Translations under genes and position numbers: made by a program
Notes under the pieces: generated by a model
The model's input: only the letters and a program-made list of their open reading frames with translations
The model's database searches: none
What the model was told of the DNA's origin: nothing
Assembly (NCBI GenBank): GCA_029059055.1
Contig: JAIDWS010000034.1
Location: 20,249 to 69,512, forward strand
Length of the DNA: 49,264 nt
Direction: 5' to 3'
DNA from: Alphaproteobacteria bacterium
GTDB taxonomy: Bacteria; Pseudomonadota; Alphaproteobacteria; Rs-D84
In this document: positions 9,046 to 42,652 of the stretch, in pieces
Layout of the letters: each line of letters begins with the position of its first letter
How positions within the stretch are numbered: the first letter of the stretch is position 1

Positions 9046-9258
9046 GAATCCACGGTTGTGGGTTCGGGACGTCGAAAATCCCTTATCTGGTCGGCATATT
9101 GTGTATGTCGTTATTTTGTGCGCGGCGCCTTGCCACGCCCCCCGACATTGGTCGGGTTGTTGCAGTTATACAACAGGGGCATCGCCCCAAAGGCTGCAAG
9201 GTCATTATCAGATATGATTTTTCGAACTTCCCGACCACCAGATTCTGGTGGTTTTCTT
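9046..9258 (+). ncRNA. C4-antisense-like structured leader RNA with terminator (copy A)
   Basis: Promoter TTGCCA-N17-TGTAAT at 9010-9038; main stem TGGTCGGG (9149-56)/CCCGACCA (9230-37); TCGAAAA/TTTTCGA and TATCTG/CAGATA complementarities; terminator ACCACCAG-ATT-CTGGTGGT-TTTC. Confidence 0.6.
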
Positions 9259-19289: not shown

Positions 19290-20906
19290 ATGGCAAAAGA
19301 AATCGTATTTGATACGGACAAACTGGCCGCCGGTGTCGATAAATTGGCCAACGCGGTCAAAATCACCATGGGCCCCAAGGGACGCACGGTCGTCATTGAA
19401 AAATCGTACGGCGCACCCGTCGCAACCAAAGACGGCGTAACCGTCGCCAAAGAAGTGTCTTTGAAAGACCCGATTGAAAACGTCGGCGCCCGCATGGTCC
19501 AAGAAGTCGCAAAAAAGGCCGGCGACAAAGCCGGTGACGGCACCACCACCGCCACTGTATTGGCCCAGAAATTAATCCGCGAAGGCCGCCGCGTCATCGC
19601 CGCCGGCATGAACCCGATGGATGTTAAGCGCGGTATCGATATCGCGGTGGCGGCGGTTATGGCCGACATTGACGCCCACGCCCGCCCGGTTAAAAACAGC
19701 GCCGAAATCGCCCAGGTTGCGACCATTTCCGCAAATTCCGACCGCGACATCGGTGAAAAAATCGCCGGTGCCATGGAACGCGTCGGCCAAGAAGGCGTCA
19801 TCACCGTCGAAGAAGCCAAAGGATTGGACACAGAAATCGACGTCGTCGAAGGAATGCAATTCGACCAAGGATTCATGTCCCCGTACTTTGTCACCAACAG
19901 TGAAAAAATGCTGGCGGAATTGGATGGCGCGCAAATCTTGGTTTCTGAAAAGAAAATCACCGGGTTGCAGGCATTGTTGCCGATTCTGGAACCGATTGCG
20001 CAATCGGGCCGCCCCCTGTTGATTATCGCCGAAGACGTCGAATCCGAAGCCTTGGCAACACTGGTGCTGAACCGTCTGCGCGGCGGATTGAAAGTCTGCG
20101 CGGTCAAAGCCCCCGGTTTCGGTGACCGCCGCAAAGAAATGCTGAAAGACATCGCCATTGTCACCGGTGCCACCATTATTTCCGACGACATGGGCATGAC
20201 ATTGGAAAACATCACCCCGGCGGTATTGGGCAGTGCCAAGAAAGTTGTTGTCAGCAAAGATGCCACATTGTTGGTTGACGGCGGCGGCGACAAAGGCGCC
20301 ATTGCCGCACGCGCGGACGAAATCCGTCGCCTGTTGGCGGACGCGTCCAGCGAATACGACCGTGAAAAACTGTCGGAACGTTTGGCCAAATTGGTGGGTG
20401 GCGTCGCCGTGATTAAGGTTGGCGGCATGACAGAATTGGAAGTCAAAGAAAAGAAAGACCGTGTTGACGACGCATTGGCCGCAACACGCGCCGCGGTTGC
20501 CGACGGCATTGTTGCCGGTGGCGGTATCGCATTGGTGCGCGCCGTGCGGGCATTGGAAAACCAGACCGGTGCCAACACCGACCAAAACGTCGGTATCGAC
20601 ATTGTGCGCCGCGCCATCGTTGCCCCATGCGCCCAGATTGCAGAAAACGCGGGTGTATCCGGTGAAATCGTTGTCGGCAAAGTCATGGAATCCACAGATT
20701 ACAATTTTGGATACAACGCCCAAACCGGCGAATACGTCGACATGATGCAGGCGGGCATTATCGACCCGGCCAAGGTTGTCAAAACCGCGATTCAGGCCGC
20801 CGCCAGCACCGCGGGGGTATTATTGACCACCGGTGCCGTCATGTCGGAAATCCCCGAAGAAAAACCGGCCGCACCCCAAATGGGTGGCATGCCGGGCATG
20901 ATGTAA
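19290..20906 (+). CDS. groEL: Chaperonin GroEL
   Basis: [32 protein letters not shown], and GGM tail. Confidence 0.98.
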
Positions 20907-20962
20907 AAACCGTCACGCAAATAAAAACCGCCCATACCGGGCGGTTTTGTTTTATACCATCT

Positions 20963-21700
20963 TTAACGGCCGCGTTCCAATGCCGATGTAAATTGGATAA
21001 TTCTGGTCATTTCACGTTCCAAACGCCCGGCGGTAAACGAACTGGTGCTGGAATCCACATGAATTCGACATCCATCCGTATCCGCCACGCCATATCCGCG
21101 AATTTTGGATTGAACATCCAAATACACAACCCCAGGCTGATGCCCACGATTAATAACCGACGGGTCAAACACCATGTTATAACGTGCCGAAATTTGCGCA
21201 CAGACGCGTGCAACATTCCCCAGGCACCGAAAAACAGGCACAACCTGGCAACGCCCCCCCCCGGCGATATTTTTAACATATTCGTTGGTTCCACACAGTG
21301 ATGTATACCCATGGCGACGATAAAATTTTTCCGCACGCGGCATAGACACCAAATCAACCGTATTGGTATGAACGGCGGCGGCCGATTCCGCATGGGCCAA
21401 CAATCTGGCCCCAATCCCGCCGGATTGATATTCCGGCAATACAAACAAATTGTGAACGACGGCCTGTTTCCGTTGGATGTCCCCCTGGATGAATCCAATC
21501 ATATGGTCCCCATCCCATGCCCCGAATGCAAATCCGGTCGGCTTTTGCTGTTTCAACGTCTGGTAAAAATGCGCCGCATACACATCCGACCACGCATTGG
21601 CCGATAACGCGCGCGACGCCGCCCCGCGAATACGAACAAAATCATCCCAGATGCCGGGGATACGCTGATTAAAAATCGGATAGATGCAGATATTTGTCAT
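20963..21700 (-). CDS. GNAT family N-acetyltransferase
   Basis: LFVLPEYQSGGIGARLL acetyl-CoA motif; A.KFY...GY. Confidence 0.8.
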   Translation of the reverse strand: MTNICIYPIFNQRIPGIWDDFVRIRGAASRALSANAWSDVYAAHFYQTLKQQKPTGFAFGAWDGDHMIGFIQGDIQRKQAVVHNLFVLPEYQSGGIGARLLAHAESAAAVHTNTVDLVSMPRAEKFYRRHGYTSLCGTNEYVKNIAGGGRCQVVPVFRCLGNVARVCAQISARYNMVFDPSVINRGHQPGVVYLDVQSKIRGYGVADTDGCRIHVDSSTSSFTAGRLEREMTRIIQFTSALERGR

Positions 21701-37961: not shown

Positions 37962-38075
37962 TTATTGACTGGATTGCTTCGTTCCACTCGCAATGACAAT
38001 GGTGTCTAATTTCCAGGAACTTTATCACCCTTGTCATTGCGAGCCACGACAGTGGCGCGGCAATCCAGTCAATAA
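37962..38075. repeat. Palindromic REP/RPE-like element
   Basis: Perfect 16-bp outer IR TTATTGACTGGATTGC and 13-bp inner IR CTCGCAATGACAA; same family as 1-272. Confidence 0.85.
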
Positions 38076-38137
38076 ACCAACACACCTGGCGTGATATAAT
38101 TCTTGAACATTCGCGTATGATGCGATATACTGGACCT

Positions 38138-38300
38138 GCATTGGGAAACCGGTGTAGGCTTCAAAACCTGACAAAAGCAGTCGAAAGACTTTAAACACTC
38201 CACATTGGTTGGAGGGTCGTGAATATCCAATAAACGACGCTATTGCTTTTGATAGTTTTGAACCTCCAACCGCCCCACAAAATGTGCGGCGGTGTTTTTT
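38138..38300 (+). ncRNA. C4-antisense-like structured leader RNA with terminator (copy B)
   Basis: Promoter TTGAAC-N17-TATACT at 38103-38131; stem GGTTGGAGG/CCTCCAACC; TTCAAAAC/GTTTTGAA and CAAAAGCA/TGCTTTTG pairings; covaries with copy C. Confidence 0.7.
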
Positions 38301-38324
38301 ATAAACGTAAAAGGAGTTAAAACT

Positions 38325-38552
38325 ATGGCTAAATTATTAATTGATGCAAATTATTACGGTAACATTATGCGCTGTGCGCGGCAACACCTGCGCATCAGTG
38401 TGGCGGACGCTGCGGCGTTATTGAAAATGAGCAAGAAAGATTATCAAAAATGCGAACGCGGGGATGAATTATTTAGCGAAGGCACGCTTCGCCGCTTTTT
38501 CCACGGGGCGTTCGCATTGCTGATTATCAAACGCAGCCGGGCAAATTTATAA
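38325..38552 (+). CDS. Small XRE/Cro-like helix-turn-helix protein (copy 1)
   Basis: SD AAGGAG; G..MR.AR..L.IS..DAA.LL.MS...Y...ERG; duplicated at 42171-42398. Confidence 0.8.
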   Translation: MAKLLIDANYYGNIMRCARQHLRISVADAAALLKMSKKDYQKCERGDELFSEGTLRRFFHGAFALLIIKRSRANL

Positions 38553-38626
38553 CCCGCGCCCGCCCGTACGTTTCCCTGGGGGCGCATTCCACACAAAAAA
38601 ATCCCCCATCCGGGGGATTTTTATTC

Positions 38627-38950
38627 TTAATTTTCCGGGACCACGGGTGTTGGTGCGGAATCTGCGTTTTCCTGCATAATGATTTCCTGGCGCAAATCGC
38701 TTTGCCGGGTGGCCATGTCGGATTTCGACGCAACCAACGCCAATGCCGCGCACAATACAAAGAATATTGTCGCCAACCATGCCGTCGTCTTGGTCAAGAA
38801 ATTCCCCGCCGCCGCACCGGTCAACGCACCGCCAAACATCGACGCCGCCGATGAACCGGACATGCCGCTGCCTTCGGATTTTTGTAATAAAATCAATCCT
38901 GTCATGAAAACCGATACGACAATCAAACAAACCAATAAAATCGAAAACAT
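38627..38950 (-). CDS. secG: Preprotein translocase subunit SecG
   Basis: ILLQKSEG.G...FGG...NFLTKTT..LA..F. Confidence 0.92.
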   Translation of the reverse strand: MFSILLVCLIVVSVFMTGLILLQKSEGSGMSGSSAASMFGGALTGAAAGNFLTKTTAWLATIFFVLCAALALVASKSDMATRQSDLRQEIIMQENADSAPTPVVPEN

Positions 38951-38996
38951 TCTTTATCCTTAAATTTCTTCTGTGCGAATTTTAGCCATCCTGCCC

Positions 38997-39629
38997 TTAA
39001 ATTGCAAGGATTTTCAACAACGCATCTGCGGCGTTTATACTGGCGGCCTTTTTCGATGTGCCCGTTCCCGTGGCACTGTGACCCATGGCCGTGACAGCCA
39101 CGCGGAAAACCGGACTGTGTGATGCGCCCGTCGGCGCCAGGTATTCATATGTCGGCAACGCACCGCCGGAATGTTTTTGCACATATTCTTGCAGGCGGGT
39201 TTTGGGGTCTTTGGGTGCGACCGTGTCGGCCGCCGCCAAATCACGCCACAATTCGGTAATTACACCCGATGCCGCGTCAAATCCCCCGTCCAGATAAATC
39301 GCGCCAAAGACCGCTTCCATCGCGTCGGCCAAAATGTGCATAATCCGGCCGCCGGTCATATGACCGTGGCGAACACATGTGTCCAATCCCAATTCTGTGG
39401 CGACATGCGCCAATGTATTTGTCGACACCAACACCGCATGACGGCGGGCCAATTCACCTTCGGCTTCGTCGGGGAACATACGGTACAGCATTGTCGCCAC
39501 CGTCAATCCCAACACGCGGTCCCCGATAAATTCCAAACGTTCATTATTTTGGGCCGCATTGGCACCGCTTTGCGTCAATGCCAAATCCAGCAACGTCGCG
39601 TCATTAAAAGTATAATTCAGTTTTAACAC
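38997..39629 (-). CDS. rnc: Ribonuclease III
   Basis: NERLEFIGD signature; AD..EA..GAIYLD.G; dsRBD DPKT.LQE. Confidence 0.95.
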   Translation of the reverse strand: MLKLNYTFNDATLLDLALTQSGANAAQNNERLEFIGDRVLGLTVATMLYRMFPDEAEGELARRHAVLVSTNTLAHVATELGLDTCVRHGHMTGGRIMHILADAMEAVFGAIYLDGGFDAASGVITELWRDLAAADTVAPKDPKTRLQEYVQKHSGGALPTYEYLAPTGASHSPVFRVAVTAMGHSATGTGTSKKAASINAADALLKILAI

Positions 39630-40508
39630 TTAATTTATCCCCATGCCAAATCGATTCCAGCGCATCTTGTTCCCCCAATTCCAGATGGCCAACATCGACG
39701 AATGATAGTTGTGTGAATACCAGACAAACCATACTTTGCCCAGCAAATTGTCACGCGGCACAAACCCGACCGGACCACGGCTGTCGCCACTGTTGTCGCG
39801 ATTGTCCCCCATAAAGAAGTAATGGCCGTCCGGCACCGTAAAGGCCGGCGTGTTATCGTACATCGCGTTGTCCGCGTATTCAATAATGCTGTGCGATACG
39901 CCGTTCGGCAATGTTTCGGTGTATTCGGTCACCTGGAAGACGCCGCATTCGGTCGGATACATGTTGCAAAAACGGTTGTCTTTGTATTCAATGGTGTAAT
40001 TGAAATCAACCGGGGCGTTATCCATCCAAATCTTGTTCCCCTTAATCGAAATGTTATCGCGGTAATACCCGACACTGCGCAGTGATTTCGGTAATGTCGC
40101 GACAATATACGGCCGCGGGTTGGACCGTTCAACCTGTTGCCCATTGATGTACAGACGACCGTCAATCATCTGGATGGTGTCGCCGGGTCGCCCGATTAAG
40201 CGTTTGACATAATCCAACCGTTCATCGACCGGGTTGCGGAATACAATCACGTCGCCCACATCCGGTTCCGATGCCAAGAAACGCCCGTTCCACAAATGCC
40301 ATGACCCAAACGGGAAAGAATATCGGGAATACCCGTACGCCCATTTTTCAACAAAGATATGGTCCCCGATATGCAGTGTCGGAATCATTGACCCGGACGG
40401 GATGTTAAACGGTTCGATTAAAATACTGCGAAACGCGATTGCAATCAGCGCCCCGTAAAACAAAGTATTAAACCATTCGCGTGCTGTGTTTTTGTTTTTT
40501 GCCGGCAT
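39630..40508 (-). CDS. lepB: Signal peptidase I
   Basis: IPSGSM.PTL, YVKRLIG.PGD and GDNRDNS.DSR motifs; lepB-rnc order. Confidence 0.95.
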   Translation of the reverse strand: MPAKNKNTAREWFNTLFYGALIAIAFRSILIEPFNIPSGSMIPTLHIGDHIFVEKWAYGYSRYSFPFGSWHLWNGRFLASEPDVGDVIVFRNPVDERLDYVKRLIGRPGDTIQMIDGRLYINGQQVERSNPRPYIVATLPKSLRSVGYYRDNISIKGNKIWMDNAPVDFNYTIEYKDNRFCNMYPTECGVFQVTEYTETLPNGVSHSIIEYADNAMYDNTPAFTVPDGHYFFMGDNRDNSGDSRGPVGFVPRDNLLGKVWFVWYSHNYHSSMLAIWNWGNKMRWNRFGMGIN

Positions 40509-40579
40509 AAATTTCAATCCTTTCTTTGTTCGATATATTAAAACTTGAAATGAATTTGCGCAAGCTATAATATGCACAT

Positions 40580-42106
40580 ATGATTTCTTTGAATTCCATT
40601 ATTTTCAACGGCATGGACAGCACGCGTATTGATGTCCAGGTTCAATTGTCCAGCGGTTTGTCCAAACCGGAATTTAACATTATCGGGTTGGCCGACCGCG
40701 CGGTCAAAGAATCTGCGGAACGCATTCGCAATGTGTTGGCGGCACTGAACCTGTCATTACCGCCCAAGCGGTTAACGGTCAATCTGTCCCCGGCCGACGT
40801 GGAAAAATCCGGGTCGCATTTTGATTTGCCGATATTGTGCGGCATTCTGTGCGCACTGGGCGTATTACCCGAAGACCAGATATCCAAATACATCATCCTG
40901 GGCGAAGTGGGGCTGAACGGCGCAATTGTAAAGGCCGGCGGCGTTCTGCCCGCCAGTGTCTGGGCCGGGGCCAACGGATATGGCATCATTTGCCCCGCAT
41001 CCCAAGGGGCCGAAGCACGCTGGGCCGGTCACACCGACATTGTGGCGGCCGCACATGTCTTGGATTTAATCAATCATTTCAAAGGAACACAGATTCTGCC
41101 AATTCCCCCGATGACAACGCCCGGCACCGATGCAACGCAACCCACGGCCGACCTGGCCGAGGTACGCGGCCAACAGGCGGCCAAGCGGGCCCTGGAAATC
41201 GCGGCGGCGGGCGGGCATGCCATGTTAATGGTCGGGCCACCCGGGTCGGGCAAAACAATGTTGGCGTCACGGTTGCCCACAATTATGCCGGAAATGACCG
41301 CGGACGAAATCTTGGAAACATCCATCATTTATTCAATCGCCGGGCAATTGGATGGACAATCATTGGTATCTGCCCGCCCATTTCGCAGTGTTCATCACAC
41401 CGCCAGTGCTGTTGCATTGGCCGGTGGCGGGTCGGACGCGCGACCGGGCGAAATATCATTGGCACACAATGGGGTATTATTTCTGGACGAATTGCCGGAA
41501 TTCAGTCGGACAACACTGGAAATCCTGCGCCAGCCGATGGAATCGGGCAAAATCATGATTTCACGCGCGCGGCGTAACGCCACGTATCCGGCACGATTTC
41601 AATTAATTGCGGCCATGAACCCATGTCCGTGTGGGCATTTGGGCAATCCCAACATGTCTTGTTCGCGTGCGCCGCGTTGCGCCGAAGCGTACCAGAACAA
41701 AATATCCGGCCCACTGTTGGACCGCATTGATTTGCATGTGGACGTGGATGCGGTCAACCCATGGGAAATGGACCGTGTTGACGATACGCCCGCCGAATCC
41801 AGCGCCACGGTTCGCGCCCGTGTTGTTGCCGCCCGCAATATGCAAATCGCCCGCCAGGGATGCGTAAACGCACAACTGGATGGCGCGGCATTGGATGCGG
41901 CCGTCAAATTATCACCGGAATTAACACAATTCTTGAACGCCGCCGCGGAAAAGATGGGAATGTCGGCCCGCGGCTATAACCGGATAAAGCGTATTGCGCG
42001 TACAATTGCGGACCTGCGCGGGGCGACGGATGTTGAAATGGCGGACCTGGCCGAGGCTTTATCGTACCGTCCCATCAATCGGGGCAAATACGGCGTGCGA
42101 TTATAA
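40580..42106 (+). CDS. comM: YifB/ComM Mg-chelatase-like AAA+ ATPase
   Basis: NLSPAD..K.G..FDLP, GPPGSGKT, PGEISLAH.GVLFLDE, MNPCPCG and SGPLLDRID motifs. Confidence 0.94.
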   Translation: MISLNSIIFNGMDSTRIDVQVQLSSGLSKPEFNIIGLADRAVKESAERIRNVLAALNLSLPPKRLTVNLSPADVEKSGSHFDLPILCGILCALGVLPEDQISKYIILGEVGLNGAIVKAGGVLPASVWAGANGYGIICPASQGAEARWAGHTDIVAAAHVLDLINHFKGTQILPIPPMTTPGTDATQPTADLAEVRGQQAAKRALEIAAAGGHAMLMVGPPGSGKTMLASRLPTIMPEMTADEILETSIIYSIAGQLDGQSLVSARPFRSVHHTASAVALAGGGSDARPGEISLAHNGVLFLDELPEFSRTTLEILRQPMESGKIMISRARRNATYPARFQLIAAMNPCPCGHLGNPNMSCSRAPRCAEAYQNKISGPLLDRIDLHVDVDAVNPWEMDRVDDTPAESSATVRARVVAARNMQIARQGCVNAQLDGAALDAAVKLSPELTQFLNAAAEKMGMSARGYNRIKRIARTIADLRGATDVEMADLAEALSYRPINRGKYGVRL

Positions 42107-42170
42107 AAATCCCCGCAATCGGGGATTTTTTTGTGTGGAATGCGCCCCCAGGGAAATGGGCGGGCGCGGG

Positions 42171-42398
42171 TTATAAATTTGCCCGGCTGCGCTTGATAAT
42201 CAGCAATGCGAATGCCCCGTGGAAAAAGCGGCGCAGCGTGCCTTCGCTAAACAAATCATCCCCGCGTTCGCATCGCTGATAATCTTTCTTGCTCATTTTC
42301 AATAACGCGGCGGCGTCCGCCACACTGATGCGCAGGTGTTGCCGCGCACAGCGCATGATATTGCCATAGTAGTTTGCATCGATTAATAATTTAGCCAT
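42171..42398 (-). CDS. Small XRE/Cro-like helix-turn-helix protein (copy 2)
   Basis: 73 of 75 aa identical to 38325-38552. Confidence 0.8.
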   Translation of the reverse strand: MAKLLIDANYYGNIMRCARQHLRISVADAAALLKMSKKDYQRCERGDDLFSEGTLRRFFHGAFALLIIKRSRANL

Positions 42399-42422
42399 AG
42401 TTTTAACTCCCTTGGTTTTTTA

Positions 42423-42591
42423 TAAAAAACACCGCCGCACATTATGTGGGCGGTTGGAGGTTAGTAACTATTGAAACGATAGTGTCGCTTATTCAGATAT
42501 ATCGCGACCCTCCAACCAATGGTTGGAGATGTTTTGTGTCTTCGCAGACAGTTTCAACGGGTTACTACACCCTGCACCGGATTCCCAATGC
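42423..42591 (-). ncRNA. C4-antisense-like structured leader RNA with terminator (copy C)
   Basis: Promoter TTGAAC-N17-TATACT at 42598-42626 (minus); same stems as copy B; TAGTAAC/GTTACTA and TTGAAAC/GTTTCAA pairings. Confidence 0.7.
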
Positions 42592-42652
42592 GAATCCAGT
42601 ATATCGCATTATACGCGAATGTTCAAGGAATTATGTAATATTTGGTGTGTAT

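Follow-up and report, generated by a model that had tools for sequence, protein, structure and literature searches.

A stretch of 49,264 nucleotides from an alphaproteobacterium of the lineage Rs-D84 (GenBank assembly GCA_029059055.1, contig JAIDWS010000034.1, positions 20,249 to 69,512 of the forward strand), hereafter referred to as the window, contains two inverted cassettes of about 530 bp, designated copies B and C. Each combines a promoter-like site and a structured leader RNA with a gene for a 75-residue helix-turn-helix (HTH) protein. The leader belongs to a family that occupies 71 to 75 places in the 998,104-bp assembly (38 contigs, 95.8% complete), about 20 of them ahead of HTH genes, and its members carry individual pairs of short sequences, the keys, complementary to two boxes located upstream in the same leader. 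We propose with moderate confidence, from comparison and folding of these sequences, that the leader acts as a locus-private, partly trans-acting riboregulator of terminator read-through resembling C4 and sRNA-Xcc1.

Alignments revealed a common order of elements. In the 5' part, -35 and -10 motifs are followed by hairpin H1, hairpin H2 (GGG...CCC, with box a1 in its loop), box b1, hairpin H3, and an A-rich spacer. The 3' part comprises a segment of the CTCCAAC type, designated anti-P1, the 5' strand of a closing stem, P1 (GGTTGGAGG type), hairpin 1, which has a conserved AT-rich loop, hairpin 2, the loop of which is key b', and a junction formed by key a'. The 3' strand of P1 (CCTCCAACC type), an intrinsic terminator, a Shine-Dalgarno (SD) sequence, and the gene complete the unit. 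The leaders are 160 to 240 nt in length, and the terminator is located 25 to 35 nt ahead of the start codon. A second subfamily, of approximately 12 to 15 copies, follows the same overall plan but differs by its P1 (GGTCGGGG type) and by a branching of hairpin 1.

To assess the keys, the 28 nt immediately preceding the P1 3' strand were compared with the upstream region, and the longest perfect Watson-Crick complement made of two blocks was recorded. For 58 leaders of family 1, the cognate complement had a median length of 14 nt (mean 13.5) versus 5 nt (mean 4.8) for 3306 non-cognate pairs. It reached at least 12 nt in 50 of the 58 leaders, and the cognate partner was the unique best match in 41 leaders and the best or tied match in 47. 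In subfamily 2, the cognate complement was 15 to 18 nt long in all 12 leaders, versus a mean of 8.6 nt and a maximum of 14 nt for non-cognate pairs. The self-complementarity of the keys exceeds chance. The 50 family-1 copies with a complement of at least 12 nt displayed 50 distinct b' keys, 26 distinct a' keys, and 50 distinct pairs, which bears out the idea of an orthogonally keyed family put forward in an earlier, sequence-only note on this DNA (the original prediction). All 50 have a bipartite site in their own leader, and another perfect site was present in the genome for only four of them; these extra sites look like by-products of shared a' types.

Key and anti-key also covary in further copies, both within this genome and in a sister metagenome-assembled genome (MAG). 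In the latter, all 14 HTH cassettes were self-keyed (12 to 16 nt), seven having both keys as found here and four having b' only. Near-orthologues in the sister genome provided two examples of compensatory change: a1 TAGTAAC replaced by TAGTTAC together with a' GTTACTA replaced by GTAACTA, and a1 TTAACAAC replaced by TTAGAAAC together with a' GTTGTTAA replaced by GTTTCTAA. Among close paralogues, the other helices (P1, the stem of hairpin 2, and H1) are nearly invariant and the b' keys are all different (50 of 50). Diversifying selection on the keys was considered, and no claim is made for it: elsewhere in the cassette, unconstrained columns vary about as much as the key columns.

Two folds were recovered for the leader. 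The open fold, obtained with RNAalifold from 52 cores, consists of P1 (9 bp) and hairpins 1 and 2, and 14 of its 20 pairs displayed compensatory changes. For a 23-pair version of this structure, 94.2% of the alignment cells were paired versus 81.9% after shuffling, none of 500 shuffles being as high; 16 of the 23 pairs and 158 cells were changed on both sides, and slid controls did not exceed 64%. The closed fold is the RNAfold minimum free energy (MFE) structure of the full-length leader. In 49 of 52 copies it joins the key region to the upstream boxes, and in 50 of 52 it joins anti-P1 to the P1 5' strand. P1 appeared in only 2 of the 52 full-length MFE structures, and forcing its formation cost +10.5 ± 4.3 kcal/mol. 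If the RNA started at P1, as it would after 5' processing, P1 formed in 34 of 52 copies. Anti-P1 offers at least seven contiguous pairs in 44 of 52 copies and covaries with the class of P1: upstream segments of the TTG class pair over a mean of 8.2 nt with P1 of the TTG class and over 4.5 nt with P1 of the TCA class. P1 begins with GG, the first G being present in 52 of 52 copies and the second in 44, and most copies have the motif R-C-C after the P1 3' strand.

The terminator was detected in all 52 copies, and its 5' arm starts inside the P1 3' strand. The overlap is 3 nt long in 20 copies and 4 nt long in 24; overlaps of 2 and 6 nt were each seen in 2 copies, and one of 5 nt in 4. Because of this overlap, a complete P1 and a terminator stem complete at its U-run end are mutually exclusive. 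The distance between the terminator and the start codon is too short to accommodate a further promoter, and expression of the gene would therefore require read-through.

These features suggest the following mode of action. A promoter of the σ70 type would drive synthesis of a leader ending at the terminator, the gene being made by read-through only. The closed fold would be the default state and would terminate, with a1 and b1 paired to a' and b', the P1 5' strand held by anti-P1, and the terminator complete. In the open fold, P1 would close hairpins 1 and 2, expose b' and a', and take 2 to 6 nt, mostly 3 to 4 nt, from the bottom of the terminator stem. The short RNA resulting from termination or processing would expose b' and a' once its 5' part had been removed or occupied, possibly following cleavage by RNase P at the GG of P1, as in C4. 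This RNA could then pair in trans with a1 and b1 of nascent transcripts with matching keys, as a rule transcripts of its own locus. Such pairing would switch the nascent leader from the closed to the open fold, weaken the terminator, and modify read-through and possibly access of the ribosome. Each locus would thus have a private feedback loop, of either sign, separated by its unique keys from approximately 70 paralogues.

The sole direct hint of action between transcription units comes from the keys of a tandem array. On the minus strand of contig C11 (approximately positions 20300 to 21400; L023:520-1720), five tandem leader units precede an XRE gene. In unit T2, the promoter is directly followed by the core, without boxes of its own, and the keys, CTTTG and GGTTACCAT, match a1 and b1 of the upstream unit T1 over 14 nt. 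The core of T1 (TCTTTC and GGCTATCA) mismatches the boxes of T1 and matches a1 and b1 of the downstream unit T3, again over 14 nt. Only 10 of the 3306 non-cognate pairs reach a match of 14 nt or more, and two such matches in one array are thus unlikely to have arisen by chance, although this is our own rough estimate and wider windows raise the background. No target for the a' key of T3 was found in the assembly. The array has the appearance of an RNA cascade.

The extent of the family was determined on the whole genome. Iterated nhmmer searches returned 48, 63, 69, and finally 75 places, and R1, a covariance model built on 52 copies, matched 71 places at E ≤ 0.01. According to a heuristic call of open reading frames (ORFs) behind the 75 leaders, 28 precede small proteins with a signal peptide that are rich in cysteine (9 to 23 Cys), 18 precede the 75-residue HTH gene, 4 precede XRE regulators of about 120 residues, and 18 precede other or doubtful ORFs; the remaining 7 have no ORF, being located at a contig end or forming orphan units. 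A profile search of the genome for the HTH protein identified 20 genes or fragments, and two further leaders end at a contig edge before the gene. Pfam searches with 20 downstream proteins identified a GT92/GT2 glycosyltransferase, a GT8 glycosyltransferase, an OMP_b-brl/Opacity-like barrel, and an HTH_31/HTH_3 protein (one of each). One more protein reached the Ephrin_rec_like cut-off, two had sub-threshold matches only, and 13 had no Pfam match. The secreted proteins with 9 to 23 Cys, at least 28 in number and mostly without a Pfam family, are all located behind a leader, and elsewhere in the genus similar genes also have the leader ahead of them.

R1 matched 141 of the 151 genomes sampled in the order (all 0.5 to 1.1 Mb), including 106 of 107 in the genus and 118 of 121 in the family. 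In this survey, a count of 23 copies per genome stands for at least 23. In other alphaproteobacterial families, 12 of 149 genomes had matches, with 1 to 7 copies each; four loci from four of these genomes gave two sub-threshold matches to sRNA-Xcc1 (31 to 35 bits), both in one locus. In other genomes, the leader was again found before small HTH proteins, secreted cysteine-rich proteins, and a pilin-like protein, and in tandem arrays. With dozens of other host genes behind it and a presence in 141 of 151 genomes, the leader is a regulatory device of the whole lineage, and the HTH cassette represents one user that has expanded.

The 75-residue HTH family has a narrower distribution. Of 201 genomes of the order, 52 contain it, and all but one of these belong to the same genus; 50 of them have 1 to 6 copies each, and this genome and one sister have 19 to 20. 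The lepB-comM locus is preserved in 13 of 13 relatives and the HTH cassette is present there in none, indicating that the cassettes multiplied recently. ligA is not adjacent to comM in the 13 relatives, and the comM-side cassette coincides with a genome-specific rearrangement breakpoint (window positions 38627 to 42106 versus L146 to L158). A palindromic repeat of about 115 nt is located at window positions 37962 to 38075, with half-sites also near 45 to 100 and 170 to 240. As single-stranded DNA it folds with -37 kcal/mol (z score of -9.8), and 70 occurrences of its 11-mer were counted genome-wide, versus 0.5 expected. Of 19 HTH cassettes, 13 have the repeat immediately upstream, and some have it downstream. 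It may be an element of the repetitive extragenic palindrome (REP) or miniature inverted-repeat transposable element (MITE) type with a bearing on the spread of the cassettes.

HTH cassettes were also found at contig ends (C5:1-396, C13:355, C1:289, C17:8, C10:58676-58930, and C38:23819-24085). A search for sequencing runs containing this DNA listed 10 DNA runs from four studies and no RNA run; the best matches were gut metagenomes. In one of four DNA contig sets, the central 3.5 kb between the two cassettes formed a single contig with no difference. The contig sets listed no strand-changing joint, which says nothing for or against inversion, as the cassettes are broken there into short contigs with summed depth. 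This fragmentation indicates that short-read assemblies break at HTH cassettes, and the copy numbers of the cassette in draft genomes are probably underestimates.

Several observations weigh against a regulator acting in trans. Promoter use, termination, processing, and trans action are all deduced from sequence patterns, and intramolecular pairing alone explains most of the key covariation. Per-column identity shows the keys to be variable, but loops, spacers, and many codon positions vary to a similar degree. Complementarity of ATAGTTTT to AAAACTAT at the start codon, which had been noticed in copy B, does exist in that copy and is not a feature of the family: in the 130 nt following the terminator, the search for a downstream target of the a2/b2 type returned a mean of 6.1 nt for cognate versus 5.8 nt for non-cognate pairs (56 copies). 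The classical C4 mode, occlusion of the ribosome binding site (RBS), is therefore not seen here, there being no cognate downstream target, unlike a2 and b2 of phage P1. Blocking a1 and b1 in silico lowered the mean probability that the SD-AUG region was unpaired from 0.44 (keys free) to 0.31, with mixed partners and no clear direction, and in only 14 of 45 MFE structures did the SD sequence pair with the P1 3' strand. The overlap between P1 and the terminator, mostly 3 to 4 nt, is short, and its effect on termination is a predicted one. Finally, the evidence for keys shared between units comes from one array only. Part of this evidence fits a purely cis-acting attenuator or sensor, in which the key helices would be long-range helices responding to another input (temperature, a protein, a ligand, or the speed of the ribosome or RNA polymerase) and the keys would drift neutrally with compensation. 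We regard this explanation as possible but rather doubtful. The presence of the key helices in 49 of 52 full-length MFE structures, the lack of trans or downstream targets in our searches, the ordinary variability of the key columns, and the association of two exclusive covarying folds with a terminator, a pattern typical of riboswitch-like leaders, all argue for it. It accounts less readily for the 50 different b' keys among close paralogues with near-invariant P1, hairpin-2 stem, and H1, for the C11 unit made of a promoter and a core without boxes and keyed to the boxes of its neighbor, and for the existence of orphan and tandem copies without a gene. In addition, architecture and a weak profile similarity link the core to RNAs of the sRNA-Xcc1 and C4 type, which are described as trans-acting (PMC5320573; PMC12189769).

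The opposite simplification, that the leaders are independent trans-acting small RNA (sRNA) genes directed at other mRNAs, a1 and b1 serving merely to mask the keys before processing and the downstream gene being incidental, is in our view very unlikely. The leader does have a promoter and a terminator of its own, and sRNA-Xcc1 and the C4-like sRNAs of Acinetobacter have been treated as trans-acting RNAs with variable loops (PMC5320573; PMC12189769). However, the own leader is the only perfect bipartite complement in the genome for 46 of 50 copies, its distance to the SD sequence and start codon is fixed in nearly all copies with no space for another promoter, and the classes of downstream genes are conserved across genomes. 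The original prediction had instead envisaged a selfish element or an addiction module, and this idea did not survive the comparison. A selfish mobile element or a toxin-antitoxin-like module would be in keeping with the 19 to 20 HTH copies confined to this genome and one sister, versus 1 to 6 in the 50 other matching genomes, with the absence of the comM-side cassette from the orthologous site in all 13 relatives, with the location of cassettes at contig ends where assemblies break, with the palindromic repeat flanking 13 of 19 cassettes, and with the resemblance of the HTH fold to antitoxins such as HipB and to restriction-modification (R-M) controller proteins. Against this, the ORF list revealed a single ORF in the 530-bp cassette, with no second gene that could be a toxin partner, no transposase, and no integrase; the HTH protein had no match among the PADLOC defence families; the RNA part heads dozens of other genes throughout the order; and the keys are stably inherited between two sister genomes (7 of 14 identical). 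We consider this possibility extremely improbable. The locus-private regulator of read-through also admits a bolder version, to which we give a low probability: the approximately 70 leaders would be private, self-reinforcing switches, the short RNA of a locus opening only the nascent leaders of that locus, so that each gene for a surface protein, secreted protein, glycosyltransferase, or regulator could be kept ON or OFF independently of the others and its state inherited via the RNA pool. If true, this would amount to RNA-based phase variation in a reduced genome, and shifted keys, as in C11, would wire units into cascades.

The two cassettes of the window, located at 38096 to 38622 on the plus strand (copy B) and at 42105 to 42635 on the minus strand (copy C), are 86% identical over 527 nt. 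Each consists, in order, of a promoter-like site, a leader of about 165 nt, a GC-rich hairpin with a U-run, an SD sequence, a 75-codon ORF, and a terminal hairpin terminator. Sequence and ORF list agree with the original prediction on the coordinates and parts of both cassettes, the key pairs and their positions, and the covariation of the stems AGTC/GACT to TGTC/GACA and GTCGT/ACGAC to GTCGC/GCGAC. The cassettes bracket secG, rnc, and lepB, all on the minus strand, and a comM/yifB-like gene on the plus strand; ligA, on the minus strand, comes next. As had been proposed, the context is free of phage: the ORF list contained no phage gene near the cassettes.

In copy B, all parts of which are on the plus strand, the promoter-like site TTGAAC-17-TATACT (38103–38131) is preserved in copies of the HTH type. 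It is followed by hairpin H1 (38138–38155) at the 5' end of the leader, which has a GAAA loop, was predicted by RNAfold, and is conserved or covarying in the alignment. Box a1, TTCAAAAC (38160–38167), on the loop side of hairpin H2, is complementary to a', and box b1, CAAAAGCA (38172–38179), is complementary to b'. Hairpin H3 (38179–38190; sequence and RNAfold) has the stem AGTC/GACT, replaced by TGTC/GACA in copy C. The anti-P1 segment (38198–38202) pairs with the P1 5' strand in the full-length fold (RNAfold), as in the family as a whole. The closing-stem RNA core extends from 38207 to 38271 and is supported by covariation and by a sub-threshold match to sRNA-Xcc1 at 38207–38279. It includes the P1 5' strand (38207–38215), hairpin 1 (38216–38238), hairpin 2 (38239–38256) with b' TGCTTTTG (38244–38251), a' GTTTTGAA (38255–38262), and the P1 3' strand (38263–38271). 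The leader terminator (38269–38300; stem 38269–38293, U-run to 38300) overlaps the P1 3' strand by 3 nt at its base. The XRE-type HTH gene of 75 codons occupies 38325–38552, stop codon included, behind the SD sequence GGAG (38313–38316), and the cassette ends with a bidirectional terminator (38597–38622) common to the convergent gene secG.

Copy C, on the minus strand, has the same promoter-like site, TTGAAC-17-TATACT, at 42598–42626, box a1 TAGTAAC at 42561–42567, which pairs with a' GTTACTA, and box b1 TTGAAAC at 42551–42557, which pairs with b' GTTTCAA. Its core (42452–42517; sequence, alignment, fold, and covariance model) comprises the P1 5' strand (42517–42509), b' (42477–42471), a' (42468–42462), and the P1 3' strand (42460–42452). 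The leader terminator (42424–42454) again overlaps the P1 3' strand by 3 nt; the 75-codon HTH gene is located at 42171–42398, stop codon included, and the terminator at the end of the cassette (42105–42132) is common to the convergent comM-like gene. The cassette-end terminator, made of an A-run, a CCCC-loop-GGGG hairpin, and a T-run, recurs in near-identical form at approximately 24 further places in the genome, many of them convergent gene ends (93 to 100% matches to positions 500 to 527 of the cassette query), and seems to serve this genome as a standard bidirectional terminator. A third member of the family, belonging to subfamily 2, was located by nhmmer in the window at 9150–9244 on the plus strand (G000:C28:29398-29492), with a sub-threshold sRNA-Xcc1 match of 30.2 bits. 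Its P1 is of the GGTCGGG type, its hairpin 1 is branched, and a small ORF resembling a signal-peptide protein is located downstream.

Only 2 of 75 residues distinguish the HTH proteins of the two cassettes (97% identity), as had been noted. They scored 23.3 and 25.4 bits against Pfam HTH_31, just under the 27-bit cut-off, and the HTH protein scored 26.5 bits against PHROG 955, 'HTH DNA binding protein'. A four-helix structure was predicted with moderate confidence (predicted local distance difference test, pLDDT, of 69). Its best Foldseek matches were XRE-type regulators (E values of 0.014 to 0.1; template modelling, TM, scores of 0.62 to 0.65), its structural neighbors including ClgR, R-M controller proteins, and HipB. 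Sequence searches of the PDB returned nothing better than E = 0.32. Among 5.8 billion proteins, 42 close clusters were retrieved, all without a name, by a word index that may miss remote kin.

If the proposed mode of action is correct, a gut alphaproteobacterium with a genome of about 1 Mb commits some 70 promoters to one RNA device, the same family being seen throughout the order, and the principle of C4, P4 CI, and IsrK would extend from single loci of mobile elements to genome-wide orthogonal addresses. It would also give RNAs of the sRNA-Xcc1 type a concrete mode of action. The family constitutes a natural collection of bipartite RNA keys and cognate boxes, with at least 50 keys that all differ from one another. 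The leaders may further explain how large sets of secreted cysteine-rich and surface proteins are controlled with few protein regulators in uncultured bacteria with reduced genomes.

Searches of Rfam at gathering thresholds detected three tRNAs only in the window. Below the thresholds, the closest family was sRNA-Xcc1 (RF02221), with 34.8 bits for copy B, one of the two window cassettes to be matched, and 27 to 40 bits for 13 of 20 further copies. Genome-wide, 26 matches were obtained at E ≤ 0.01, the best at 40.4 bits and none above the 53-bit cut-off, and they extend over the full length of the model (positions 1 to 87) on the cores. The leaders resemble sRNA-Xcc1 by a closing stem around two hairpins, a short 3' junction, and their occurrence in multiple copies; they differ by their cognate upstream boxes, the anti-P1 segment, and a terminator preceding host genes. 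The title of the original paper on sRNA-Xcc1 reportedly names an integron, transposon, or plasmid context; no such context was seen at the leaders of this genome. In a Xylella island, five homologues of sRNA-Xcc1 are arranged in tandem about 385 bp apart (PMC12189769).

The original prediction had likened the layout to the C4 and P4 CI immunity RNAs. The likeness holds for the order of elements, which equals that of immI of phage P1, and it does not extend to profile matches. C4 (RF01695, gathering threshold of 45 bits) gave no match at E ≤ 10 on either cassette and none at E ≤ 1 on 20 further copies; the two matches of about 19 bits in the whole genome were not at a leader, and conversely R1 did not find c4 in phage P1. 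For c4-a1b1 (RF03163, cut-off of 46.7 bits), sub-threshold matches were obtained in 2 of 22 copies scanned, one at 42554–42604 on the minus strand (11.8 bits, E = 4.5) and one in another copy (19.7 bits, E = 0.17), both in the expected position. A match to isrK in the box region of copy C (14.1 bits, E = 2) is at the level of chance. By annotation and sequence, immI has the order promoter, a1, b1, and a closing-stem c4 RNA with b' before a', and the nested complementarity of a1 to a' and b1 to b' is common to both systems. The GG at the start of P1 in the leaders resembles the GGW site of RNase P in C4 (PMC5320573). Processing of C4 at its 5' side gives an RNA of roughly 77 nt, and the GG and R-C-C motifs of the leaders are consistent with such a step. 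In C4 of phages P1 and P7, small changes in the keys confer specificity (PMC5320573). Phage P1, however, has a2, b2, and icd after c4, whereas the leaders lack a2 and b2 and have an intrinsic terminator directly after the RNA; they are associated with neither icd, ant, nor a phage, and number about 70 per genome.

The CI RNA of P4 is made from a leader and pairs with seqA upstream and seqC downstream, causing termination (PMC4825925). The leaders share with it an RNA that originates from the leader of the operon under its control, pairs upstream of itself, and controls termination; P4 differs by a downstream seqC, for which no counterpart was found here, and by a single copy in a mobile element. 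Short IsrK, from the Salmonella prophage Gifsy-1, displaces an intramolecular helix in its own read-through mRNA and thereby acts on it in trans (PMC4825925). The succession of promoter, sRNA, terminator, and read-through into a gene is the same in both systems, as is a read-through RNA with two alternative structures (PMC4825925), but IsrK is a single locus and controls a cascade of antirepressor and antiterminator. In Acinetobacter baumannii, the 'Group 1' set comprises 21 chromosomal, non-phage C4-like sRNAs with an upstream 'Region 1' hairpin, a variable a' loop, and apparent processing at GGW (PMC5320573). These match Rfam C4 and, in the portions of that article available to us, are not described as gene leaders or as having self-complementary boxes (PMC5320573). 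Their density appears far lower, with 21 copies reported in one genome versus 71 to 75 in 1 Mb. Titles and abstracts of the retrieved papers naming C4 antisense RNA mention no such leaders in Alphaproteobacteria, which is not proof of absence. We therefore file the leader RNA as working like the class of C4, CI, and IsrK and as a distant relative of sRNA-Xcc1, outside Rfam families at curated thresholds. Of particular note are the scale, with 71 to 75 copies in 1 Mb and an order-wide distribution, the fully orthogonal set of keys, and the link to secreted and surface proteins.

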